NCBI GenBank assembly: GCA_024613925.1
Contig: GCA_024613925.1_4713.1
Reading direction: 5' to 3' (one strand)
Source of the DNA: a phage
DNA length: 64,000 bases
The notes beneath the pieces were generated by a model, which had not been told where the DNA came from, did not search any database, and worked only from the letters and a program-made list of their open reading frames with translations. This document shows positions 1 through 44,075 of the stretch, piece after piece (position 1 is the stretch's first letter; the number at the start of each line of letters is the position of its first letter). Position numbers and translations under genes: made by a program.

Positions 1-1
1 C

Positions 2-667
2 GTAAGCTTTGCGAAGCTCTATCAAGTTGACAACAGCGCAATTACCAAACGTATGCGACAGATCATGACCGAAGGTCCGGTCATGACCGATGAACTTTTG
101 CGTGAGTATGCAAACGAACTGGGTGAAACGAACTCCCGCACGTTGGATCTGTCCGACAACGGTTCTGTTATCATTGAGCTTGAAGTGCCGAAGATTTCAC
201 GACAAATCGCCATGGGTGAACGTTGGTTAAGCGATACCTTGGAAGATCTGCGTGATATTCTATCGCGTCCGTCAATGACCGAAGAAGAGCGTGATCGTGT
301 TATTCGTGAACGTCAGTTCTATAGCTGGATGCGTCAGTATGATGCATGGATCAAATCGATGCATGTGTCAGTAAACGGTACCATGCGTCGTGTAAGCGAT
401 GCGGATACGGCAACGGTATTAGCACAGCTGTCTCGTGACAGCGACCTTCGTGAACGCTATATCGATGGGCTGATGCAATTCATCGGTGATTCGACGATTG
501 CGCTCGCAGCAATGCCTGCCTGGAAATGTCCGAAATGTAATGCCGATATTGCTGACAATCTGCGCGACCAGAAATACTACGATCTGATTGCTTTGGATGT
601 ACCCCAGCTTTTTTTTACCCTAAACTCCGTCCAATCTCTTCAGGAGGGGATGGACGCGGTATTCTAA
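2..667 (+). CDS. hypothetical protein, 5' end outside window (C-terminal CxxC pair WKCPKC)
   Basis: Reading frame open from window edge to TAA 665-667; first ATG at 53. Confidence 0.5.
   Translation, partial: VSFAKLYQVDNSAITKRMRQIMTEGPVMTDELLREYANELGETNSRTLDLSDNGSVIIELEVPKISRQIAMGERWLSDTLEDLRDILSRPSMTEEERDRVIRERQFYSWMRQYDAWIKSMHVSVNGTMRRVSDADTATVLAQLSRDSDLRERYIDGLMQFIGDSTIALAAMPAWKCPKCNADIADNLRDQKYYDLIALDVPQLFFTLNSVQSLQEGMDAVF
609..616 (+). other. T8 homopolymer forming a U_UUU_UUU -1 slippery heptamer (610-616) in the zero frame of ORF 2..667
   Basis: Read directly: codons CTT TTT TTT ACC in frame of ORF 53..667; the -1 frame is open from 556 to 1089. Confidence 0.9.
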
Positions 668-729
668 TCGATCCGCGATACGGGTTACATGACGGACAAC
701 TTGTTCGTAATGATGAAAAAATCTGGGAA

Positions 730-1089
730 TTGCTGTTAGCGCGTAAAGGCGACGGCGGCATGAAACTGAACATCGAAATGGGTATTGCGTACGATACCAT
801 GTTTGGTTTGTACGACCGCGTTAACGAATGGACACCGTTGAAATGGGTGGCTCAGCATCCCGCTGAAGATCCCTGGGACAGATTAGGGATTAAACCCTTA
901 ATCGAGGATTATGTTCGATTCGGTATTAAAGAGTTCATGACGCTGGATGCGTTTTTAAAAGCACCGTATCCTTACGCGCAAACGGTACTCAAAATCGCAC
1001 AAGACGAACTGCGGAAACGTAGTGCGGTACTGGACGACGATGAGGACAAGTTACGACGAGAAGAAGAACGTTTACGAAACGGAAAATAA
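730..1089 (+). CDS. hypothetical protein; possibly the -1 frameshift extension of the upstream ORF rather than an independent gene
   Basis: Frame open from 556; first in-frame start is TTG at 730 with no ATG until M at ~760; TAA at 1087-1089. Confidence 0.4.
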   Translation: MLLARKGDGGMKLNIEMGIAYDTMFGLYDRVNEWTPLKWVAQHPAEDPWDRLGIKPLIEDYVRFGIKEFMTLDAFLKAPYPYAQTVLKIAQDELRKRSAVLDDDEDKLRREEERLRNGK

Positions 1090-1090
1090 A

Positions 1091-1600
1091 ATGGCGAGAT
1101 TTACCAGTTTGATTGGGTTGGATATTTGGGAAACACCGGCTGACGTTCGGGTTATTCCTGTCAACACCGTCGGTGTGATGGGACGCGGTCTTGCCAAGCA
1201 GGCGGCCGATCGTGTACCCGGTCTTCTTGAAGCGTACCGTAAGCAATGTCAAGATGGGTTTAAGGTGGGCGAAGTCGTGTCATATCAGCATGGCGAGAAC
1301 GATCAGCTCACCTACGTGTTGTTTCCATCAAAATCGGATTGGCGCGAAAAAACACGACGTGAGTATATCGTTAATGGTTTACTGGCGTTAAAAGCGTGGT
1401 TATTGGAGCTTCAGTTCGAAAGAGACGGCTTCTCATACCACCGTCCGGCTGAACCGTTGATTGTCGCAATTCCTCCGGTTGGTTCTGGTTGCGGTAATAT
1501 CGGTTACGGACAATCCGAAACAATCCAGCCTCAATGGGTACGCGCACAAATCAAACAGTATCTTGCCACCGTGCCAAACGTTCATTTCTACTTGTTCTAA
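1091..1600 (+). CDS. macro domain protein (ADP-ribose binding/hydrolase fold)
   Basis: Motifs VIPVNTVGVMGRGLAKQ and PPVGSGCGNIGY resemble macrodomain Gly-rich signatures; ATG at 1091 one nt after upstream stop. Confidence 0.55.
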   Translation: MARFTSLIGLDIWETPADVRVIPVNTVGVMGRGLAKQAADRVPGLLEAYRKQCQDGFKVGEVVSYQHGENDQLTYVLFPSKSDWREKTRREYIVNGLLALKAWLLELQFERDGFSYHRPAEPLIVAIPPVGSGCGNIGYGQSETIQPQWVRAQIKQYLATVPNVHFYLF

Positions 1601-1616
1601 TGCAACGGTAACATAA

Positions 1617-1648
1617 CCCTCTCCCTTCCCTTACGGGTTGGGAGAGGG
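1617..1648. terminator. GC-rich hairpin between convergent genes (ccctctccc...gggagaggg), followed by CTTATGCTG
   Basis: 9-bp perfect stem with inner ccc/ggg pairing, read from sequence. Confidence 0.55.
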
Positions 1649-1665
1649 CTTATGCTGTTATGTTA

Positions 1666-2040
1666 TTAATGTTCGTTCCAGATGGCATCTTCCGGTGGAA
1701 CAATAGGATCTTTCTTCGGCATTGATGGCACTTCATGACGATGTTTACGGAACTGCCTATCAATAACCTCACGAAGCCGGTACGCGTCAACCCATGTTGA
1801 TTTATTGAACAGCTCCAACGTCACGGTTAATCGTGTTCTTGACATTGAATAGCTTTTCTTTGCAATCAAATTGGGATAATTCAGTTGAGCGAACCACGCA
1901 CGTATCTGTGCTTCGGTAAAAGCGATGCTGTAATAACTAAGTTTACCGTCATTAAAATCGTGCGCGTGGGTGTAGCGTCCAGCGTAACGCCAGACAAGAT
2001 GCACATTCAGATCGATCCATGGTGGGGTGGTATCAGCCAT
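1666..2040 (-). CDS. hypothetical protein
   Basis: 124-aa ORF, start abuts upstream gene stop. Confidence 0.5.
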   Translation of the reverse strand: MADTTPPWIDLNVHLVWRYAGRYTHAHDFNDGKLSYYSIAFTEAQIRAWFAQLNYPNLIAKKSYSMSRTRLTVTLELFNKSTWVDAYRLREVIDRQFRKHRHEVPSMPKKDPIVPPEDAIWNEH

Positions 2041-2049
2041 GTGTTACCC

Positions 2050-2619
2050 TCAACGATTCTTCATCACTTTACCCAGGCTTTCGATATTATCCCAAAAGCG
2101 ATTTTTACTTGGCGCATCGCCAACGATAACCGACATCAAATCGCGACGTTCACGACTGATGATGCCCTGTGATTTCCAGATCACCATCGTCCAGCAAGCT
2201 GCCAGAACGAACAGATGGTTAATGCTCGGTTTGGTTTGCGCGATGAACGCAAGCCATGCCCAGATACCGGTATATACTAGCGTCACTAAAAAGAGGGAGA
2301 TTGTCGCAATGACAACAACGAAGTTTTGGACAGCGGGTTGATTCGCGTTATCATGAATAGCGGTAAGATCGGGAAGGTTACCTTCAACTGAACTCGTTTC
2401 ATCGATTTCCAATTCTTCGATTTCTTTTCGTGTGTCGGGAGCTAATCCGGCATCATCAAGATGCTTTTTTAACCGCTGTATACTTAATCGTTGACCGACA
2501 GGAATGTTGATGTTGTCGTAACTATTAAGCGCATCAACCAGGGAGCGCCCGTCAACGAGAACCAAGCTCGCAGTACCCATTGTCTGCGGTTTTATTTTGT
2601 AAAGGTCTTTTACTTTCAT
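2050..2619 (-). CDS. membrane protein (C-terminal hydrophobic helices)
   Basis: 189-aa ORF; hydrophobic stretches FVVVIATISLFLVTLVYTGIWAWLAFI. Confidence 0.5.
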   Translation of the reverse strand: MKVKDLYKIKPQTMGTASLVLVDGRSLVDALNSYDNINIPVGQRLSIQRLKKHLDDAGLAPDTRKEIEELEIDETSSVEGNLPDLTAIHDNANQPAVQNFVVVIATISLFLVTLVYTGIWAWLAFIAQTKPSINHLFVLAACWTMVIWKSQGIISRERRDLMSVIVGDAPSKNRFWDNIESLGKVMKNR

Positions 2620-2640
2620 GTAGACACCACCTCCAACGTG

Positions 2641-5253
2641 TTAAGCGTCTGGTGTAAAATCAAAAGGAATGTCCGTACGAATGACATCATAGCGTTTTCC
2701 GAGGAAATAAAACTCTTCGGGAACCTGACCGGGAATAATGCTATCGCCGATGAACTGCGGATACGCCCAGATGTACTGAGTGAGTCCTTCGAACATATCC
2801 AGGTTATTTGCGTGGTTGCCCATGATACGTTTCCAGAGTTCGCGTTTATACGGTGTTTTAACATCGAACCCATAAAGCGGTGCAAGATCTTCACCAGGAA
2901 CAAATCCCAGGTAATAGTGAATCTGACTAACCGGGAAACCAAGCGTATCTCGCGGAATGGTGATCGCTTGCTCTGCCTTGGTGACATGCGTCTCAATAAT
3001 CCAGTCGTAACACTCCGAATAGAACCGATCGAATTTCTCTGGATTATACCACGCTTTGGGAAGATTCAGTTTCTCCGTGAACGCGTTCGACATGATCGTC
3101 GGCAAGAACGGAAGAATACCGGTTTTGATCTGCGTGTATTTCGATTTTACCCGGTTAACCAAATTCCAGCAACTGTATCCTAACTGTTCGTTACAAAACT
3201 CAACGTAGAGATCGTAGTCACCGCCGGATAATGGGTTGTTGATGTCACCGATGTCTGCGGCATATTTGTTGGGATATCGGTTATTGAAAGCCAGTTTGGT
3301 CTGGTAGTCGTAGATACACGGTTTGTTGTTCGCTGTATTGATCCACCACCAAGGTTCACCTACCTGCACACAAATGTCCTGGACATGAGGGTAGATGATA
3401 TCAGCGAATGCCGTTAACACATCCCCTAACCACGCCATCGCCTGTTGGTTACATGGAGACAGCAACCAAGATGGTGGCGTATATCCGGTTGCTGCGATGT
3501 TTCCTTCCCAATCCTGCTGCGCCCACTCGAACGGGCATGCGGTACTCATCAATTCGTAACTTAAACTGATGGTGACAGAGAAATGGTGTTTTGCAGCATA
3601 TGCGGCGAAAGCTTCATGCCACGCAATACAGGCCGGATTTAATACATCCGTGGTGTTTACCAGTAACTTACCTGCACTTGGCGTCCAGACAGTATCGTAG
3701 AAATGCGACATGCCAACATAATGCACTAATTCATCTTGATATCCCGCATAAACCAGGTTCTCAAATACGCGCTCCGGCGTGATGTTGTAATGGTCATCAT
3801 AAGCAGTTATCGCACGAAGTTCGTGTGGTGTACAGTGGTGGCGACTAACCGTCATTTCCTGATACACCCCATCGATAGGAAGAATCTCGAGGGTTAAGCC
3901 GAGGTCGATTGGCGTTTCCAGATAGGTCGTTTCAGTCGCACCTTCCTTATAATGTCGAGAACTCATGCTGAACATCAACGACGCTACCGATTCGAGTTCG
4001 ATAGGCTCGTCAGCATAGAACCCCGCCATTGCGTCATTGAAATCGATCGTCACGATTGCGCTTCTACCGTCTTCAGAGACATCGGTCGCATATCGGGTTA
4101 ATGAGATATACTGACGGCTATCGTCTTTGTGTACGACGGTTAAAACCGGCGGGTGTTCGGTATCTGCAAAGTTACGCTGGTCGCCAGTAAACGTGACCTT
4201 CGCTTTAAAGATCAAACCGAGTAACGATGTCATGGGATCATACGCAATACTGCCGTGATCCAGCGTATCCGTTGTCCGCCATTCTATCCCGACCAACCCG
4301 TTAGCGGTATGGCATCGCATATACGCATTAAGTGTCATGTCCTCACTGACAACCGCGAAGTTCTCTGTTGACTGACCGTTGATAATCCAATACATCGGTT
4401 GCCAGAGGTTACGCGTACCTTTTGCGTAGTGGTAGGTTGGTGCGCCTTTGGGATTGCCATTATTAAGATGAAATACAGCAGTACCTTGATAATGGTCGTT
4501 CGTATTAATCGGAACACTGTAAGCATCACCGAGGTCCGTACGTTCGACCTTCGTGACTGTTGCGTTTTCAAACAACCCACGTAACGCCGGTAAACCGATA
4601 TCTTCAGGTGCGTTTTCTCGACGAATCGCATCCGCGATGCGGTGGGCTAAGGCGGGGTAAATGGCATCACCCTGTTGTAGGTTTGCAAGACCTACAAAGC
4701 GATCGGGGTCGATGCCAGCAATCAATAACTCAACATCACCCTTCGTTCTATCGTTGTGAAGATATTTCAGTCCAGTAAGATCGAGGTGCTGAATAAGCGA
4801 CAACAGGTTGTATTTACGGTTTTCAACAGTTAGTACAAGATCGCCTGCCCAAACCAAACTTCCCTCATCCGCTGTTACTTTAACGGATTGTCGGCCTGTG
4901 GTAGACGTTGTTGTCGTTTTATTTAATTGTCCTTGTAGGAAGTCGGTTGCGAGGTCAAAGGCAATGCCGTAACGGTCAGCGACCGCTTGCATGATTTCAC
5001 GTAACTGGGTATCTTCTTCAATGATAATCTTGACAGGTATTCCCAAGAACGCTTTAGCGAGGTCTCGTTTAACCAACGAGACGAATACGGATTTGTAGTA
5101 TCGACTTCCATCTTTCCCTTTAAAAAGAATGGAGGTTGTTTCGGGTGACGATAGAATACGCGCAAATTCAACATCGTCGAAAGTAAGAGAAAGTCCGTTT
5201 TTCTCGTTGACCAATCTTAGTATTTCATTTTGCGCGGTTTCATGTAACTTCAT
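2641..5253 (-). CDS. tail fibre / tailspike-like receptor-binding protein with shared N-terminal adapter module (paralog A)
   Basis: 870 aa; N-terminal ~160 aa homologous to ORFs 10445..10993, 11128..12957, 52953..54410 (motifs RDLAKAFLGIPVK, DRYGIAFD). Confidence 0.6.
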   Translation of the reverse strand: MKLHETAQNEILRLVNEKNGLSLTFDDVEFARILSSPETTSILFKGKDGSRYYKSVFVSLVKRDLAKAFLGIPVKIIIEEDTQLREIMQAVADRYGIAFDLATDFLQGQLNKTTTTSTTGRQSVKVTADEGSLVWAGDLVLTVENRKYNLLSLIQHLDLTGLKYLHNDRTKGDVELLIAGIDPDRFVGLANLQQGDAIYPALAHRIADAIRRENAPEDIGLPALRGLFENATVTKVERTDLGDAYSVPINTNDHYQGTAVFHLNNGNPKGAPTYHYAKGTRNLWQPMYWIINGQSTENFAVVSEDMTLNAYMRCHTANGLVGIEWRTTDTLDHGSIAYDPMTSLLGLIFKAKVTFTGDQRNFADTEHPPVLTVVHKDDSRQYISLTRYATDVSEDGRSAIVTIDFNDAMAGFYADEPIELESVASLMFSMSSRHYKEGATETTYLETPIDLGLTLEILPIDGVYQEMTVSRHHCTPHELRAITAYDDHYNITPERVFENLVYAGYQDELVHYVGMSHFYDTVWTPSAGKLLVNTTDVLNPACIAWHEAFAAYAAKHHFSVTISLSYELMSTACPFEWAQQDWEGNIAATGYTPPSWLLSPCNQQAMAWLGDVLTAFADIIYPHVQDICVQVGEPWWWINTANNKPCIYDYQTKLAFNNRYPNKYAADIGDINNPLSGGDYDLYVEFCNEQLGYSCWNLVNRVKSKYTQIKTGILPFLPTIMSNAFTEKLNLPKAWYNPEKFDRFYSECYDWIIETHVTKAEQAITIPRDTLGFPVSQIHYYLGFVPGEDLAPLYGFDVKTPYKRELWKRIMGNHANNLDMFEGLTQYIWAYPQFIGDSIIPGQVPEEFYFLGKRYDVIRTDIPFDFTPDA

Positions 5254-5275
5254 TAAAAACCTCAGCCCTTTAGAA

Positions 5276-5917
5276 TTAAATGTACTGCTTACCGCCCACG
5301 AAGGAAGTTAACCAGTTACCCGAAACAAGCTGCGAAGCCCAGCCAGGCACTGCCCTACCATTCTGGCTCATGATGTTACCACACCAACCAGGGAATCCGG
5401 GACGGATGTAATAGAAAGTTAAATTGTAGAGATGGCAATTCCATACCGCAACGTTATGTTTACCAGAAACCGCTTTAAAGACAAACGCAACGGGTAAAGG
5501 CGACGATAACAATTCAGTCACAGGAACAGCTGACCAGTTCGCATTCGCGTTCCACGGCTGCCATGTGTGTTTGCGCGAGTCACAGTTAACGTTACCGTTG
5601 TTACCGCGCCCACCCGCATGCCACCATAGCGACGGACTCATGTTCTTAAGTGAGGTAAATTGCTGCGGTGGAATATTAGGAATGATAACAGGGTTGGTAC
5701 CTTGTCCGTGTTTCTTTTCTTTTGCGTTTACATACCCACTTATCGATTCGAGGTATTTGACACCAGGATAATTGTTCTGGACTTGTGTCGCAATATCACG
5801 AACGTCGAACGTCCAGCAGATCATGGTGTTGTAGTAAGCGTCGGTGTTATCGTGCCATGAGTTACCATCTTGTAAACGTGCGCCGCTATTCGGTGTTTTA
5901 TCTGTACTTATAGCCAT
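5276..5917 (-). CDS. hypothetical protein (Trp/Asn/Gly-rich), in fibre module
   Basis: 213-aa ORF between lipoprotein gene and paralog A. Confidence 0.5.
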   Translation of the reverse strand: MAISTDKTPNSGARLQDGNSWHDNTDAYYNTMICWTFDVRDIATQVQNNYPGVKYLESISGYVNAKEKKHGQGTNPVIIPNIPPQQFTSLKNMSPSLWWHAGGRGNNGNVNCDSRKHTWQPWNANANWSAVPVTELLSSPLPVAFVFKAVSGKHNVAVWNCHLYNLTFYYIRPGFPGWCGNIMSQNGRAVPGWASQLVSGNWLTSFVGGKQYI

Positions 5918-6056
5918 GGTCTTGTCCTATACGTTGGTGGTTGAAATGGCGGATATCGGATGCATGCTGGACGTGAACCCTATAATTCGCGCTATCGCCA
6001 TTTTCTACCTCGTTTCTATTCTCAAAAAGGAAATTTCATACGATGACGCCATAGCA

Positions 6057-6086
6057 GCTCCTCCTTCCCTGACGGGTTGGAGGAGC
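6057..6086 (-). terminator. GC-rich hairpin (gctcctcc...ggaggagc) downstream of lipoprotein gene
   Basis: 8-bp stem plus inner ccc/ggg; core ttccctNacgggttgg shared with hairpin at 1617. Confidence 0.5.
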
Positions 6087-6094
6087 ATACTTAA

Positions 6095-6601
6095 TTACTT
6101 ACTGATAACCTCAACGGAATCCGGGTCGGCGATCAGCGCACGATCGGTAGAACAATTGAAGAAGACCATACCAACACCATCACCGTTCGAGTTCAGGGTT
6201 GAACTTGCGTAAGACAGGGTTGGTTTATTCATGCGGTAGAAGCGTTCGCTGGTTGTGGTATTGAACCCCAGATCAACGTAGTCTTTCACCGTGGTGTACA
6301 ACTGTGTGGACTCGAAAACGGTTACCGGAGAGTCAACGGTAAACTGACTGCCTTCATCCACAACCAGAACTTTATCGTTCCAGATTTCAGTGGTTGAGAA
6401 CTTCGGTTTCCAATGTTCGAATTCCTGGGTTGCACCCCAGCAAGAATACACAGCGAGATTGCTGTTCTTCTCGACAGGTTTCAACCCCACCAGTTGTGTC
6501 AGGTCTTTATCCAGGTTCGGTAAACCTTCCAGCGTAGCACACCCACCCAGAGAAAGCACCATCAACATACCAAGAACGATCGTGCAAAGTTTCTTCATCA
6601 T
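6095..6601 (-). CDS. lipoprotein (signal peptide with lipobox LSLGGC)
   Basis: N-terminus MMKKLCTIVLGMLMVLSLGGCATLEG. Confidence 0.6.
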   Translation of the reverse strand: MMKKLCTIVLGMLMVLSLGGCATLEGLPNLDKDLTQLVGLKPVEKNSNLAVYSCWGATQEFEHWKPKFSTTEIWNDKVLVVDEGSQFTVDSPVTVFESTQLYTTVKDYVDLGFNTTTSERFYRMNKPTLSYASSTLNSNGDGVGMVFFNCSTDRALIADPDSVEVISK

Positions 6602-6641
6602 CGGATTTCCTTATGTGTAACGGGAGTGATCTCCATAGTAA

Positions 6642-7226
6642 TTACACAGTTGTAGGAAATTCCGGCCAATCGATATTTGGTGCTGTTGATGTGTCAACGC
6701 GATGCAGAGCCACCCGATACTTTTTCCATGCCGTCAACATGGACACCTCTTCTTCCGTTGCGATCTCCAGATCCACAGCATCCTGAAGTGGCGTAATATG
6801 ATCATTCGCCGCCTTCATCAGACTGTTTTTTGTTTCTTCCGCCTCCCGGATCCGGAACAGTTTTTCTGCTTCCGTATCCTTCACCCAGGCTGTGCCGTCC
6901 CACTTCTGAAACTCCCCTTCCGGCGATAACCAGGTAACATTTTCCGGTAACGGACCGAGTTCAGAAATAAATAACGCGTCGCCGGAAGCCACGTCATAAA
7001 CCGTTTTACCCCGATGATCTTCAACGAGATGCCACGATTCATTTTCATTGTTAAAAACTGCCACAAAACCAGCAGGAATTTCCGGTGGGGCGATATCTGT
7101 AGAATTAGCTGGCAGACCTGTATGAGGCGGAATATATGCATCACCTTCACCAATAAATTCATTAGTTCCGGCCAGCAGATTATAAATTTTTATGGTCCGT
7201 GGTTGTTCACTCATTCTGAATGCCAT
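6642..7226 (-). CDS. tail fibre assembly protein (Tfa-type chaperone)
   Basis: C-terminal region [45 protein letters not shown] typical of lambda/P2-type Tfa; start ATG overlaps fibre stop (TAATG). Confidence 0.8.
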
Positions 7227-10200
7227 TATGCAAGCCTCACGATGTAGTTAAATGCAATGTTTTTGACGGTGTTTTCCGCGTTACCCGTAGCGTTAACGGT
7301 GATGGTGTGTCCATGTGATCCAATCGCAACCGAGTGCGTATGCGCACCAATACCTACAGTATGTGCATGTGCGCCAGAACTTGCTGCAGTACCAGACAGC
7401 GAGTGGGTATGTGCTCCATCTGATGATGTCTTCCCTGATATACGGGTCATACCTGAGCCACCTTCCAGTGGTACAATTGGTGCTTTGACTGAAACCTGGG
7501 TATAACCGTTAGGAAAGAGTGCACCATTATTAGAATTCGTATATGGTCCAGAACTCCGGTGTTGGTGCCCACCTGCACTATTTGCAGTCCCGCTCACACT
7601 GTGTGTATGTGCCCCGGTGTTATTCGTGGATTTAGTGCCGTAATCAAACGACGATGTGGTTTTCGTCCCCAAATCCGTATTGGATGCGCTGGCGCTATGG
7701 TTGTGCGATTTTATGCCGTCCTGTTCCTGAGACAATACGGCACGACCACTGGCAGGTTTGCCCTTAATCGTCCAGCCACGCATATCAGGAATAACGCCTG
7801 ACGGATAAGCCACTGCAAGTTTCGGGTATACAGATTTGTCAAAAGTCTGCCCTTGCATCAGAGCATAACCAGACGGAACGGTATCTGAAGGCCATGGAAT
7901 AGGCGCGCCAACAGGCAACTCCGGAGGTGCGGTAAACTCACCCAACTCCTTTATTGCCTCAATAAGTAGAGCTATTTGGGCAGAGATAGAGACCGTTAAA
8001 ACGTCCTCACCATTAGCGTCTTTATAAGTAGAAACTGCTTCAGGTAACACTTTTTGTAAGGTTTGTGCTACAACGCCAACCTCACGATGAACATTAGTGG
8101 ATTTAAAGTTCTCCTTTTTGTCGTATATTAAACCTGACAATTTCTTTACCTTCTCCAATGCATTAGTTATTGGAGAGAAATTACTTTTCAGCCGGGCGTC
8201 TGATCGTGTATAAACTTCGTTAAAGTTACCGTTCCCATCACAATCTATATTTCCAGTAACGTTGAGAGGTACATAGCTTTGAACAGCCTCTCTCGTAAAG
8301 CGTAAAACGTGGTCATAATCGGCGTAAACATCTAGAACGCCGTCCCCGTTCTGCTTAAAGCCGGTGTCATCATCCCCTAAAGCTATGGAGTTCTCACCTA
8401 AATGATTCTCGGTTCCAATACCCAGATTATCGCTTAAAATACTATCAATAGCAAATATTGAATGAGAACAATAAAACCCTCGTCCATTGTTAAAATCCAA
8501 AATGGTTTGTGCGTTCGTGCTTTCTGTCGCGGGATTAGTTGCTCCCCACTTATAGGTTGTTTGACCGACGGTATAATTCTTGGTCGGAACACTAACCGAT
8601 AACCCTTCTTCGGCAAAAACTTGAATAGGGAAAGCCCTACCTTCGACGTAAAAAACGCTGCACACATCATCATCTTCCGCACCTGTTACAATGGAATGGA
8701 TTGCGCGCTCATCAGTATCATATATCGAAAAATACCCTGCTGCGTATGAACCACGATCAGTCCAACCGCCCGGCATTACCGTTCCATTGAATTCGCAGTT
8801 ATTCATTGCATAATCACCACTGGCAGATGTGGTTGTAATAACCACTCTGGAAGCCAGTTCGCCAGTGCTACCAGTGGAACGCCGGAAAATAACTGGATAC
8901 CACTTTCCGCCAACGGCTTTAGACGGCGCGTTAAATACGTACTGCCGCATTCCTTTTTTCTTATCCACCTCGTCTTTGCTGTAAACATTAATGTTACTCA
9001 GGAAGCGACCCTTATCAGGAATATCTGCGCCGTTAGAACTGCGTTGCATAGCGCCCGCAGCTTTATCAACAGTGGTTTTCAAACCCAGGAAGTTAATGAT
9101 ATCGGCCGTCGACCCTTTCGCTAACAAATCACGCGCAGTCGAGGTGAAATCCGCTAACCCTACCTGATTACTACCGGTAAAATAAGGGAGTTTATTCGCT
9201 TCTGTTGTTAGGTTAGACCACGCCGTGAGCAGCGCGTTCAAAGGTTGTTTACCCGCCAACGTATTGGTTATTGTCGTTGCGAAATTAGGATCGTTCCCTA
9301 AAGCTTGAGCCAGCTCATTAAGCGTATTTAGCGCTTCTGGAGACGAGTCGATCAGTGATGCGATAGCACGCATCACAAATTCCGTGTTGGCAATCTGTCG
9401 ACTGCTATCGTTCTCTGCAGCCGTAGGCGCTGCCGGGATACCGGTGAACACAGGGCTATTAAGATCTGCCTTGAGAGCGATGAGACGTTTAAGTGCGTCG
9501 ACATCGACTTTCAGGTTTTCCCATCCGATGAGAGAACCACCACTGCTGGCATGGTAACGGTTGTACCAGAAGTCACCGTTAACGCCTAAAAAGAATATTC
9601 CCTTCTCTTCGTTTTGTGGGCCGGAACTATTTCGTGACGAGCTGATGTAATTGATTTCAATGAGGCCGTTAAACGTCACTCCCGGGATGATTTTGTTGTC
9701 TCCAGCCGACTGTGATACCTGGTAAATCCCCGGGGTTGCGGCTTTGACCCATGTTAAGAATTCTGTTACTCCAGCGGTACCGCTGAAATTCTTAACGTCG
9801 GTAAGTATTGCCCCATAACCGAACATACCGGGTAGAGCCACTCGTCCGTTGGTGCGGTCACGAATATCTGTTGCAACAACAGGCAATTGTTTACGAACGG
9901 CATTAACCGCTTTAGGCGTGGCCGATTTTGTCTCGTCGTCGCTATCGGTTTCATTACTTAGAATAGTTAAACCGCGCGTAGCAGTCGTTGCATCAGGAAG
10001 AAATGCGTTATCCAACACCTTAAGCTGTATTGCACTCGTATTACTAACAACGACATGCACCTGACAGTTAAGAACGCTGGTTGCGCCTTCGGTAGGCGTA
10101 GGCTTATATCTTTCTGGCGCACTGCAGACGGCAATCAGAACACCTTGGTCATCATACAAACCGATCTCACGTACCCAGAACCCACCTTGACCAGCAGGAA

Positions 10201-10438
10201 TAATACCCTCAACGATAATCCTGGTTGTGCTGTCACCATCCGCATGGATATTAGAAACTTCCCCACGATAAACTTCGTGAACAAGCGCTGTTTGGCTGGC
10301 GTTCGGGGTTGGGATCGAGCCGTTACCATCACCAACGGCAAAGTGTGTGATTTTTAGTTTCTCACCGTCGGGAAGTAACGCAGCGGTGATACGTTCTGCT
10401 CCTTTATCGGTAACTACCGTTATATATGCTGTACTCAT
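7226..10438 (-). CDS. long tail fibre protein with C-terminal His-x-His repeat tip
   Basis: 1070 aa; repeats [38 protein letters not shown]; Gly/Ser/Thr-rich; followed by Tfa gene. Confidence 0.8.
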
Positions 10439-11127: not shown

Positions 11128-12957
11128 TTATGCTGCTACGTATCCCGGCCAACGTTCTCTTGGCCAGTTTGTTGCGCCCTGCCCAACGTTGTCCTTACCA
11201 GAAATTACATTACTTACGTCCCAACCGCTAAGGTCTTGGTTAAATGCGGTGTTATCGCGCATCATGAGATCGATCTCACGTAGTGACTGGGTATTCCAGC
11301 CGGAAATGTCTTGGTTAAATGCTTTATTGGAGGCAAACATGTTAGTCACGTTCTGTAATTTTGATGTGTTCCAACCACCGATATCACTATTGAACGACGT
11401 GTCCGAGAACATGCCTGCGGCGTTAATGAGGCTGTCTGTTTTCCAGTTAATCAGCTTGTCACCATCGAGCGCCCTGCAACCACCGAACATAAAACTCATA
11501 TCGTTAACTTTGGATACATTCCATTTATCTAACCCGTTACCAACGAACGCGTAACAAGACTGGAACATCCAGCTCATATCGGTAACCCGACTCACATTCC
11601 ATTTACTGAAGTCGAGGTTAAGTTTCTGACACCCTAAGAAGGTTTCACACATACTGGTGATACGACTAACATCCCACTCTTGGATGTTGGGGTCGTTAAG
11701 CGTCGTTAAATAGTTGAACAATTTGTCTAACGACGTCCATTTCTCTGGGATACGGTTTGGTACTGTATGAAGCGATGAAAGGTTATTGGTTGATGGAGAG
11801 CGGAACATGCCGTTATCCCAATTTACGATCTCCGTAATTTCGTACCCTCTGATCGTCTGAGTAGCGTAACCATCTTTCACCGTACCTGTAGCGACGATGG
11901 TATATTCACCAGTGTCCGCATAATCGTGGACGTAGGCATTGTTGCTGGCGGTCTCCGTCGTCTTAGTCCCATCACCCCAATCGATATTGACGTTATCCCA
12001 CCCACCTAGTTTGAACTGTACTTTGCCTCCGGTGGCTTTTAGGATGTATTTACCCCCATTGTCTGTATAATAACAGACAACCATTGGACCGTACAGATTA
12101 CCTATCTGCCAATCATCCTTTTGCGTTATTGCGATTTGCGCCGCACCACGCTGTACGAAGAGTACCGTACGATTCTCGGCAGTCTGTAATGTGGTTATTG
12201 CCTGAGCCTTATCGTCCTCGCTAATTTCACCAGACACCACTAAAGCGCTTAACATCCTTTCGAAGTATTCGATCGGTAACTCAGCTCCAACAGACTTATC
12301 AACAGACTGTACAGCAAGATCACCCAATGCTGCAGTGGTAGCCAATGCCAATGAACCCTTGGTCATATCTGTTTCTTGGATGTAATGCAGTCCCGTAAGC
12401 TGGTACGCTTGAATAATAGTAATCAGGTTCAGCGTATCGTTAACGACCTGTACTTGTAAATACCCGGACCACACATAGCTGTCTTCGGCAATTAGTAGAT
12501 CGACTGACTGAATACCTGATGTTTCAAAGGTGATCTTCTCATTAAGATCGGTTTCCAGGAAATCAACCGCGAGGTCGAAATTAATGCCGTACTTTTCAGC
12601 GATGGAATCTACGATATTTCTTAAAGTAACATCTGTGCTTACGATAAAACGTAACGGAATTCCTGTAAACGCTTTAGCAATGTCTCGACGAACATACGTA
12701 AGCGATTGTTCGAAGAAATACGGGCTGTTATCTCCAGGCTTGATGGTTACCTGGCACACTTCAGGATATTCGGCTGGGATGAACGATTCGAATTTAACAT
12801 CGGATTCTTTCAACGAAAGATTGTTATTCCGGTTCACTAACGCCAGAAGATCGGCTTTCCATCCGGGGTAAACTGTAGACATAAGCACTCCAAAGTTCAT
12901 GGGGCGGTAACCGCCCCGTTGGTTAAATTGTTGGTTTAATATCGCGTAATAGGGCAA
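11128..12957 (-). CDS. receptor-binding protein: N-terminal adapter module plus C-terminal BspA-like leucine-rich repeats (paralog C)
   Basis: Repeats WNVSRVTDMSWMFQSC, WNVSKVNDMSFMFGGC, GWNTSKLQNVTNMFAS, SGWNTQSL, SGWDVSNV; true start probably downstream near MSTVYPGWK. Confidence 0.65.
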   Translation of the reverse strand: MPYYAILNQQFNQRGGYRPMNFGVLMSTVYPGWKADLLALVNRNNNLSLKESDVKFESFIPAEYPEVCQVTIKPGDNSPYFFEQSLTYVRRDIAKAFTGIPLRFIVSTDVTLRNIVDSIAEKYGINFDLAVDFLETDLNEKITFETSGIQSVDLLIAEDSYVWSGYLQVQVVNDTLNLITIIQAYQLTGLHYIQETDMTKGSLALATTAALGDLAVQSVDKSVGAELPIEYFERMLSALVVSGEISEDDKAQAITTLQTAENRTVLFVQRGAAQIAITQKDDWQIGNLYGPMVVCYYTDNGGKYILKATGGKVQFKLGGWDNVNIDWGDGTKTTETASNNAYVHDYADTGEYTIVATGTVKDGYATQTIRGYEITEIVNWDNGMFRSPSTNNLSSLHTVPNRIPEKWTSLDKLFNYLTTLNDPNIQEWDVSRITSMCETFLGCQKLNLDFSKWNVSRVTDMSWMFQSCYAFVGNGLDKWNVSKVNDMSFMFGGCRALDGDKLINWKTDSLINAAGMFSDTSFNSDIGGWNTSKLQNVTNMFASNKAFNQDISGWNTQSLREIDLMMRDNTAFNQDLSGWDVSNVISGKDNVGQGATNWPRERWPGYVAA

Positions 12958-42221: not shown

Positions 42222-42330
42222 GTTTTATTCCTTAGTAGTCCTAGTAGTAGTATTGAGGAATTTCACCTCATTAGATAGTCTAATTTAGTAATGTTTTACT
42301 GAGCTATTGTTAACCCCAATACGAGCATAA

Positions 42331-42737: not shown

Positions 42738-44063
42738 TCACTTCAGTAGCTTAGACGTCGCCATGCTTCGCGCTAACGCAACGTCATACGCATCCATGAT
42801 TGCGTCACCGATAGCGGTATGACGGATCAGCGGAATACCCATGTCTGGATACTCTTTGGTGCCTAAGATGGATACCGGTTTGTCTTGATACGCAGCAATC
42901 ATCGAACGAATATCCTGAACCTGGTTATAACGACAAACTGGCTTAAAGCCCGCTTTACGGAACCAATGCTCTAATTGAGGCCAATCTGTTTCACCGCGAG
43001 CAAGATAATAGAAGGTATCTTTACCGTAGTATTCGGTCATTTTGTCACGAATACTGTTGACGAACGCATTTACTTCGGCGATGGCTTCTTTATAACCCAT
43101 TGCCTTACAATGTTGAAAACAATAGTCGCGCGCTTCCTTTGGTGCTTTGGTTTGCCACCATTCTACTGTTGATTCACTGATACGACCACCGTCAGCGATT
43201 TGACCATGAACGTCAGGGAAGATATCTATACGCGGACCGTTAACAATGGATTCTGGATTAGCCAGATCGAAGAACACGATACCGATTTCCAGCAATACTC
43301 CATTCTTTTCCAGACTAAGGTTTTCAACATCTAAACAAAATGCAGGCTTCTCTACCGCTAACGGCTCGAACGAATGGTTGCTGGTATCCGATTCGGTTTT
43401 AAGTTCGACGACAACCGGATCGGTATCCGTAGGTTTCAGTTCTACTACAGCATCATCGAGTCCCGATAATGAAAAATAGTCTTCGAAGAAATCGGGTATC
43501 GTCATACCATGCAAATTGATATCGCAATCTTCCAACCATTGCTTCAACTGGTGCTCACCGGCATGAATCGCTAAACGGCATGGTCCGGAACGATCATCTA
43601 GCGCTGCATCGATCCAGAAGAAAGCACGTATAAGTAAGTAAGGATTATACTCCGCGATGATTTCTTGGCTAGCCGAGAAATCGTACACCATTAGTTGTAT
43701 TATTCCCTTACGTGTGTTATACGGATCAACTTTCAATCGACGCACTATTTCTTCTACGAATTCCAGCGCACGCGTGTACGATGTGGACCCACCTTGTTCA
43801 TACGAACATATACCCGTCAAAAGTTCCTTATAGGACGCATATGGAACCATAGGCGATAATTTGTACGACAGTTCAGTATTGTAATTATCGCATAATTTCT
43901 TCGGGGCGATAGCATCCTGTATCGCTGTAATAAACGCCGGTCCATCAATATCAAACAACCATCCTTGACGCCGGTATGCAGTGTATCGTAATAACGCACC
44001 GATAACTGCCTGGGGCGGTGTATATTCTTTCCCGTTAATTTCAAACAGTAGTTTGCTCATCAT
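42738..44063 (-). CDS. protein with C-terminal DEDDh-type 3'-5' exonuclease domain and unknown N-terminal domain
   Basis: FCLDVENLS (Exo I D-x-E) and HTAIGDAIMDA (Exo III H-x-A-x-x-D-A). Confidence 0.5.
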   Translation of the reverse strand: MMSKLLFEINGKEYTPPQAVIGALLRYTAYRRQGWLFDIDGPAFITAIQDAIAPKKLCDNYNTELSYKLSPMVPYASYKELLTGICSYEQGGSTSYTRALEFVEEIVRRLKVDPYNTRKGIIQLMVYDFSASQEIIAEYNPYLLIRAFFWIDAALDDRSGPCRLAIHAGEHQLKQWLEDCDINLHGMTIPDFFEDYFSLSGLDDAVVELKPTDTDPVVVELKTESDTSNHSFEPLAVEKPAFCLDVENLSLEKNGVLLEIGIVFFDLANPESIVNGPRIDIFPDVHGQIADGGRISESTVEWWQTKAPKEARDYCFQHCKAMGYKEAIAEVNAFVNSIRDKMTEYYGKDTFYYLARGETDWPQLEHWFRKAGFKPVCRYNQVQDIRSMIAAYQDKPVSILGTKEYPDMGIPLIRHTAIGDAIMDAYDVALARSMATSKLLK

Positions 44064-44075
44064 AACACCTTTTCA

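Follow-up and report, generated by a model that had tools for sequence, protein, structure and literature searches.

The locus examined here raises the question of whether a small phage gene encodes an enzyme that removes ADP-ribose and, if it does, from which substrate. The gene lies in a 64,000-nt stretch of phage DNA (GenBank assembly GCA_024613925.1, contig GCA_024613925.1_4713.1), the whole of which we refer to as the window, and an earlier note on this DNA had read its product as a macrodomain protein that could reverse ADP-ribosylation. Positions 1-6683 of the window are 96.2% identical at the nucleotide level to Escherichia phage vB_EcoM_Goslar, a 237-kb nucleus-forming jumbo phage. 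The remainder is collinear with 91.8-156 kb of Goslar at 91-96% identity with few indels, and includes the genes of the multisubunit RNA polymerase.

ORF calling returns a real ORF of 169 codons, with an ATG at 1091 and a TAA at 1598-1600 (Table 1). Its product shares 97.6% of its amino acids with Goslar gp83 (YP_009820768.1), from which it differs by four conservative or surface substitutions (D40E, Q54R, K58T, and K87R), and it comes from a different isolate, in which its gene closes the gp080-gp083 operon just as gp83 does in Goslar. At the codon level, 15 synonymous versus 4 non-synonymous differences separate the two genes, which points to purifying selection on the window gene relative to Goslar. 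The RefSeq record places the start of gp83 at the equivalent of window position 1040, that is, 51 nt (17 codons) upstream of 1091. We rejected this start, which would overlap the upstream gene gp082 by 50 nt and would add 17 residues that are absent from PhiKZ gp104, from PhiPA3 gp108, and from the approximately 47%-identical relatives. The N-termini of PhiKZ gp104 and PhiPA3 gp108 (MAEF) align to MARF at 1091, and of the six nearest relatives in the databases, four have a start equivalent to 1091, both of the approximately 47%-identical ones among them. Judged from these alignments, 1091 is a better start than the one annotated for Goslar in RefSeq.

Table 1. Features of the macrodomain gene and its immediate 3' flank (window positions).
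Feature	Position	Strand	Basis
CDS, 169 aa; stand-alone DarG-type macrodomain, Goslar gp83 orthologue (chimallivirus AdfM)	1091..1600	+	ORF, profiles, AF2
Loop 1, first Gly-rich motif VNTVGVMGRGLA, aa 24-35	1160..1195	+	N25, R32; alignments A1, A2
FPSKSDW motif with K81 and W84	1322..1342	+	Alignment A2
Loop 2, second Gly-rich motif PPVGSGCGNIGY, aa 128-139	1472..1507	+	G131, G133, G135; alignments
8-aa insertion peculiar to the Goslar clade, aa 141-148, 3' of loop 2	1511-1534	+	Alignment A2
Strong hairpin, likely bidirectional transcription terminator	1611..1660	.	Folding; Goslar terminator annotation

Profile searches place the product among the macrodomains, with a similarity that exceeds chance by a wide margin. 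Pfam Macro (PF01661) matches aa 23-141, corresponding to profile positions 3-113 of 118, with E=9.2e-6 and 26 bits, where the gathering score is 22; a weak match to Pfam DUF7242, whose 17.8 bits fall short of the cut-off of 27, was set aside. DarG is the sole meaningful match in PADLOC (E=1.7e-22), and in NCBIfam the DarG antitoxin equivalog (antitoxin_DarG) is matched at E=3e-23, the family ranked second reaching only 0.08. Both DarG matches are confined to the macrodomain part, positions 7-146 of profiles with 329 and 338 positions, and the NCBIfam score of 82.6 lies far under the 250-bit equivalog cut-off. When PDB sequences are searched with phmmer, the best match is the DarG macrodomain of T. 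aquaticus (5M31/5M3E, E=4.8e-15), followed by M. tuberculosis DarG (5M3I, E=1.8e-11). A family profile built from 15 relatives (alignment A1) matches the same two proteins in the PDB at 6e-42 and 2.5e-41, respectively, and T. africanus DarTG at 2.6e-35, with TARG1 at approximately 1e-13 and Poa1p (6LFQ-6LFU) at approximately 5e-5 to 1e-4.

The predicted structure leads to the same subfamily. The AF2 model of the window protein (pLDDT 86.4, pTM 0.85) has a macro fold, a mixed beta-sheet between helices, and in a fold search with this model ranks 1-4 are taken by DarG structures, namely the macrodomains from T. aquaticus and M. tuberculosis and the DarTG complex from T. africanus, with a TM of 0.86 upon normalisation to the DarG macrodomain targets. 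Next after DarG comes TARG1, and Poa1p (rank 16 or lower) and viral macrodomains are found further down. More than 200 PDB folds match at E<=0.001, and the 50 matches listed are macrodomains or designed macro-fold proteins. The model drops to a pLDDT of <50 at aa 135-142, a segment whose equivalent loop in T. aquaticus DarG (TaqDarG) shifts upon ligand binding (PMC5179494). The protein is a macrodomain of the DarG type, within the TARG1/DarG class. The macrodomain reading of the earlier note is therefore borne out by a PF01661 match above the gathering score, by both Gly-rich loops, and by the predicted fold. The searches and the structure prediction it had proposed gave concordant results, the Pfam and profile searches finding a macrodomain that PADLOC, NCBIfam, and the PDB profile comparison assign to the DarG type, and the structure prediction returning a macro fold with DarG structures on top. 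DarG, which the note had offered as an example of a macrodomain hydrolase, was an apt choice, since DarG macrodomains rank best by sequence, profile, and predicted fold alike.

In order to compare active sites we used a second alignment (A2), which contains the window protein, Goslar gp83, PhiKZ gp104, PhiPA3 gp108, the Noxifer homologue, and two solved DarG macrodomains; TaqDarG numbering is given here as the PDB chain index minus 10, in agreement with the N22/K80 of PMC13309987. The two Gly-rich motifs that had been quoted as macrodomain signatures, VNTVGVMGRGLA and PPVGSGCGNIGY, are both found in the translated 169-aa ORF. Invariant in A2 are V24, N25, G28, M30, G31, G33, A35, F78, P79, K81, W84, P128, P129, G131, and G135, and four of these (N25, G28, G31, and G33) are invariant in A1 as well. 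The conserved loops sought in an alignment are hence present, with glycines G28/G31/G33 and G131/G135 invariant and G133 matching TaqDarG G119. The flanking glycines G131 and G135 correspond to G117 and G121 of TaqDarG. N25 is equivalent to TaqDarG N22 and PhiKZ AdfM N23, R32 conservatively replaces TaqDarG K29, K81 takes the position of the catalytic lysine (TaqDarG K80, PhiKZ K78), and W84 that of TaqDarG W83. TaqDarG loses its activity with K80A and is severely impaired by N22A, K29E, and G119E (PMC5179494); in PhiKZ AdfM, activity is lowered by N23A (PMC13309987). The TaqDarG mutants map to N25, R32, K81, and G133 of the window protein, and therefore all residues known to matter are kept or conservatively replaced. 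TaqDarG W83, which lies beside the distal ribose, has been proposed to stack on the modified thymine, and its mutation has little effect (PMC5179494).

The genomic setting differs from that of a bacterial toxin-antitoxin pair. Four rightward genes (homologues of gp080-gp083) form an operon that ends with the macrodomain gene, and the gp082 homologue upstream of it stops at 1089, abutting the ATG at 1091. Downstream, a convergent leftward gp084 homologue has its stop at 1666 and is separated from the stop of the macrodomain gene at 1600 by the hairpin listed in Table 1, which folds with an MFE of -33.3 kcal/mol (z=-6.4 vs shuffles) and coincides with a site annotated as a terminator in the Goslar record. 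A simple terminator scan missed this hairpin because it has neither a T-run nor a short loop. The scan of positions 1-2200 for sigma-70 promoters and simple terminators gave nothing meaningful and fewer matches than in shuffles; few sigma-70 matches are expected, since the phage transcribes with its own RNA polymerases. The earlier note had placed the gene at the edge of the tail-fibre module, a placement that does not hold: it ends a rightward operon that converges on the leftward tail and tail-fibre block, and it lies outside that module for this reason. The neighbouring ORFs (53-667, 760-1089, 1666-2040, and 2050-2619) have no Pfam match, and the gene that comes after them codes for a structural protein resembling a tail sheath. 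No darT stands next to the macrodomain gene, none being found by Pfam in these ORFs and none being annotated in the corresponding region of Goslar. A conserved partner upstream was considered and rejected, as the gp082 homologue (760-1089, plus strand, 109-119 aa) has no BLASTP similarity to the upstream genes in Noxifer or PhiPA3; it is kept within the Goslar lineage only, including the approximately 47%-identical relative.

Bacterial DarG2 (Taq 5M31/5M3E, Mtb 5M3I, and T. africanus DarTG 7OMU) belongs to the same macrodomain subfamily and has the same fold and active-site residues. It differs in architecture and in context: DarG2 has approximately 330-350 aa with a C-terminal DarT-binding domain and is encoded beside its cognate darT, whereas the window protein has 169 aa, no such domain, and a phage gene with no adjacent darT. 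Because both the DarT-binding domain and the adjacent toxin gene are missing, we regard the protein as an orphan antitoxin-like enzyme and not as a DarG. Unlike bacterial DarG2, it would by analogy act in trans, on a toxin of the host. The DarG macrodomain alone suffices as an antitoxin for DarT (PMC5179494).

Relatives in other nucleus-forming phages suggest what such an orphan may do. AdfM (anti-DarT factor macro) is the name given to PhiKZ gp104, a DarG2-like macrodomain (PMC13309987). Orthology to this protein is established by an alignment over its full length (31% identity, E=3e-24), and PhiKZ gp104 and PhiPA3 gp108 are both stand-alone DarG-type macrodomains of approximately 160 aa that align end to end from the initiator Met, at 31-34% identity, and have the catalytic Asn and Lys in common with the window protein. 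By this comparison the latter is a PhiKZ gp104 homologue in a nucleus-forming phage, and as such a chimallivirus AdfM homologue. It is further from DarG than the two Pseudomonas phage proteins are (78 bits vs 131-133 for PADLOC DarG), has 8 extra aa after loop 2, and lacks their short C-terminal tail. The RefSeq entry for gp83 reads "macro domain-containing protein" and "weakly similar to ORF104 [phiKZ]", and Figure 1 of Morgan et al. (2026, Cell Rep) includes gp83 among the chimallivirus AdfM proteins (PMC13309987). Our literature search found no experiment on Goslar gp83, which appears only in the schematic and the alignment of PMC13309987.

Taking these observations together, we consider it likely that the product, as the AdfM orthologue of Goslar-type phages, is an orphan antitoxin-like DNA ADP-ribosyl glycohydrolase that reverses DarT2 damage on phage DNA. 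The evidence for activity comes from PhiKZ gp104, which strips the ADP-ribose made by DarT2 from an ssDNA oligonucleotide and rescues E. coli from DarT2 toxicity; PhiKZ and PhiPA3 both need AdfM against DarTG2, and deletion mutants lose 3-6 log of titre (PMC13309987). It has thus been published for these two phages that a nucleus-forming phage still needs an enzymatic eraser (PMC13309987), which it does because DarT2 leaks past the protein shell. Substrate, role against DarTG2, and nuclear import are carried over by us from the 31%-identical PhiKZ protein and would apply here by analogy. Upon infection, DarT2 of a host DarTG2 system would ADP-ribosylate thymidines in single-stranded phage DNA. 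The ADP-ribose would be held in the pocket between the two Gly-rich loops of the macrodomain, where N25 would position the substrate and K81 would cleave the thymine-ribose bond. The unmodified DNA restored in this way could then be replicated and packaged.

For this the enzyme would have to reach the phage DNA, and its import into the phage nucleus, where that DNA resides, is probable by analogy with the AdfM proteins of PhiKZ, PhiPA3, and Asesino, for which import has been shown (PMC13309987). The PicA pathway would be the route. In PhiKZ gp104, residues 77-95 form the surface patch that determines import, a process that depends on PicA and is specific to the phage; Goslar, too, carries an essential PicA (PMC11087766). 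The patch corresponds to aa 80-98 of the window protein, with no recognisable motif. The earlier note had suggested an anti-defence function, and this part stands insofar as it fits the experiments on PhiKZ gp104/AdfM (PMC13309987) and the catalytic residues, the function being assigned by homology only; the claim to novelty does not stand, as the family is already known, AdfM having been named and characterised in 2025-2026 with the Goslar orthologue gp83 already in the AdfM list. What results for the gene is a firm annotation as a DarG-type, AdfM-family anti-DarTG2 factor, in a close relative of Goslar, the E. coli model that is amenable to genetics.

Sequence alone leaves some latitude as to the substrate, because related macrodomains such as TARG1 act on protein ADP-ribosylation. 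The window protein might accordingly be a TARG1-like hydrolase that takes mono-ADP-ribose off proteins or RNA, undoing the modifications of other host defence ARTs (e.g., the mRNA-targeting CmdT) or tuning an ART of the phage itself, with DNA not its main substrate. Human TARG1/OARD1 (4J5S) is of the same macrodomain class, has its catalytic lysine at the same position, and ranks directly after DarG by structure and by profile, and both ARTs and macrodomains are common in jumbo phages (PMC9503650). TARG1 is, however, a protein Glu/Asp-ADPr hydrolase, and the family profile separates it from DarG by approximately 28 orders of magnitude in E-value (approximately 1e-13 vs 6e-42). W84, at the DarG-specific Trp position for which stacking on thymine has been proposed, is conserved in DarG and AdfM, whereas TARG1 carries Ala at this position (PMC5179494). 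No ART is annotated in the approximately 77 kb of Goslar that correspond to the window, and the homologue that has been assayed, PhiKZ gp104, acts on DNA (PMC13309987). We therefore regard a TARG1-like activity as improbable.

Two insertions count against a plain DarG-like specificity of the proposed glycohydrolase, as they could alter it. One (aa 108-121) precedes the loop-2 strand; it is absent from bacterial DarG, present in the window protein, PhiKZ gp104, and PhiPA3 gp108, and partly common to other chimalliviruses. The other, of 8 residues (aa 141-148), directly follows loop 2, which grasps the ADP-ribose, and is found in the Goslar clade alone (A1 and A2). They may confer a different or broader substrate range, or form a Goslar-specific import surface, and so define a functionally distinct AdfM subtype; we hold this to be unlikely. 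Were the substrate range to differ, it could include further ADP-ribosyl linkages, on DNA or RNA, that the ARTs of enterobacterial defence systems produce.

An enzyme of small molecules, which would process ADP-ribose-1''-phosphate or O-acetyl-ADP-ribose or degrade ADPr-derived immune signals, is suggested mainly by names. PHROG 335 bears the label "phosphatase", "Appr-1-p processing" occurs among older annotations, JGI calls relatives "O-acetyl-ADP-ribose deacetylase", and the RefSeq note for Goslar cites CDD Macro_Poa1p_like (cd02901); Poa1p itself is among the weaker fold and profile matches. These labels are, however, inherited generic macrodomain names, and Poa1p is not the closest relative (approximately 5e-5 vs 6e-42 for DarG). 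NCBIfam and PADLOC give DarG only, and the protein has the Lys that is catalytic in the TARG1/DarG mechanism, so that we consider a small-molecule substrate very unlikely. Annotation gains from replacing the inherited "phosphatase" label, as it does from correcting the start codon in the Goslar RefSeq record. That the protein is a non-catalytic ADP-ribose reader, or that its gene is decaying and plays no role in infection, could be read from the presence of a macrodomain protein in only approximately half of chimalliviruses (PMC13309987), but is extremely unlikely, given that the residues needed for activity are all intact, that the gene is under purifying selection relative to Goslar, and that gene and operon are kept in a 47%-identical relative.

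The proposed AdfM function has counterparts in phages of E. coli. E. coli phages are among the targets of DarTG2, and T4 uses against it the macrodomain protein Tk.4, which is required for resistance to E. coli DarTG2 and was independently named AdfM in a 2025 HIDEN-SEQ preprint (10.1101/2025.11.20.689424). Tk.4 is, like the window protein, phage-encoded and stand-alone; a pairwise comparison aligns 114 aa of the two at 25% identity with E=2e-5, and hhalign gives the match a probability of 94%. At the FP[ST]K position our alignments show no Lys in Tk.4, which reaches only 36 bits with PADLOC DarG. Orthology was rejected on these grounds: Tk.4 is a remote macrodomain relative whose catalytic Lys is not aligned, and the T4 macrodomain was probably acquired independently. 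AdfN (T4 30.3 and other phage NADAR proteins) follows the same strategy of an orphan antitoxin-like eraser of DarT marks; its NADAR fold is, however, unrelated, and it is specific for the guanine-ADPr made by DarT1 and inactive against DarTG2 (PMC11825919). One relative, of 318 aa (P0042), carries a DarG-type macrodomain (aa 6-153) fused to NADAR (aa 165-309). Such a fusion might in principle remove ADP-ribose from thymine and from guanine alike and thereby counter DarT2 as well as DarT1.

By tblastn, homologues of the window protein occur in 167 phage records, mainly of nucleus-forming jumbo phages (PhiKZ-like, PhiPA3, Psa21, Noxifer, SPN3US-like, and Erwinia jumbo phages), with phiEco32-like podophages also among the main carriers. 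When 1.8 billion cluster representatives were searched exhaustively, 2,948 proteins matched at E<=0.001. Within that set the Goslar clade is isolated, a single representative being better than 1e-30 and the next standing at 1.8e-24. Near relatives are mostly stand-alone proteins of approximately 150 aa, and some are full-length DarG. On the metagenomic contig of 46.8 kb that encodes the 47%-identical relative, the same rightward four-gene operon is kept (150, 536, 119, and 169 aa). Salmonella enterica serovar Muenchen is the label of an 809-nt contig that carries a 99%-identical copy (P0001), and a 96%-identical cluster (P0002) holds 232 member sequences from public sequencing runs. Because of this copy and this cluster, Goslar-like phages seem to be common in enterobacterial samples, and they may infect Salmonella or contaminate Salmonella assemblies.

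Apart from the macrodomain gene, the window departs from Goslar at several places. On the minus strand, within 6642-10438, the segment 6684-9173 has no Goslar match. It involves a tail-fibre gene (ORF 7226..10438, 1069 aa) with tail-collar, Peptidase_S74 chaperone, and Collar domains, the distal part of which is absent from Goslar, and a Caudo_TAP assembly gene (6642..7226) that likewise has no Goslar match. Lambdoid phages of E. coli and Salmonella carry side-tail-fibre/tfa cassettes to which the distal part of the tail fibre and the Caudo_TAP gene are 87-91% identical at the nucleotide level. By this comparison the receptor-binding module of the window is one that has been swapped horizontally, probably with a change in host range. 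Also on the minus strand, at 11128-12957, there is a 608-aa ORF that is missing at the matching Goslar position. It combines an N-terminal DUF7941, a domain that also occurs in the gp086 homologue (2641-5253), with C-terminal DUF285/BspA-like repeats, and its nucleotide sequence is only 68-76% similar to part of Goslar gp161. This ORF looks like an extra adhesin-like protein, possibly a tail-associated one.

Smaller differences consist of losses and of one replacement. Relative to Goslar, the window lacks approximately 0.86 kb in the gp112/gp113 region (including an acetyltransferase), approximately 0.71 kb (gp120), and approximately 0.29 kb (gp145). The junctions lie at approximately 27030, 29859, and 42302-42308. 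At 43357-44072, a stretch of approximately 0.7 kb is replaced within or beside the homologue of the gp147 exoribonuclease. Finally, the 870-aa gp086 homologue (2641-5253, minus strand), a "hypothetical protein" in Goslar, matches Pfam TIM-barrel_NCTSP (1e-84), NCTSP_N, and DUF7941, and a possible upgrade of its annotation would be to non-contractile tail sheath protein.
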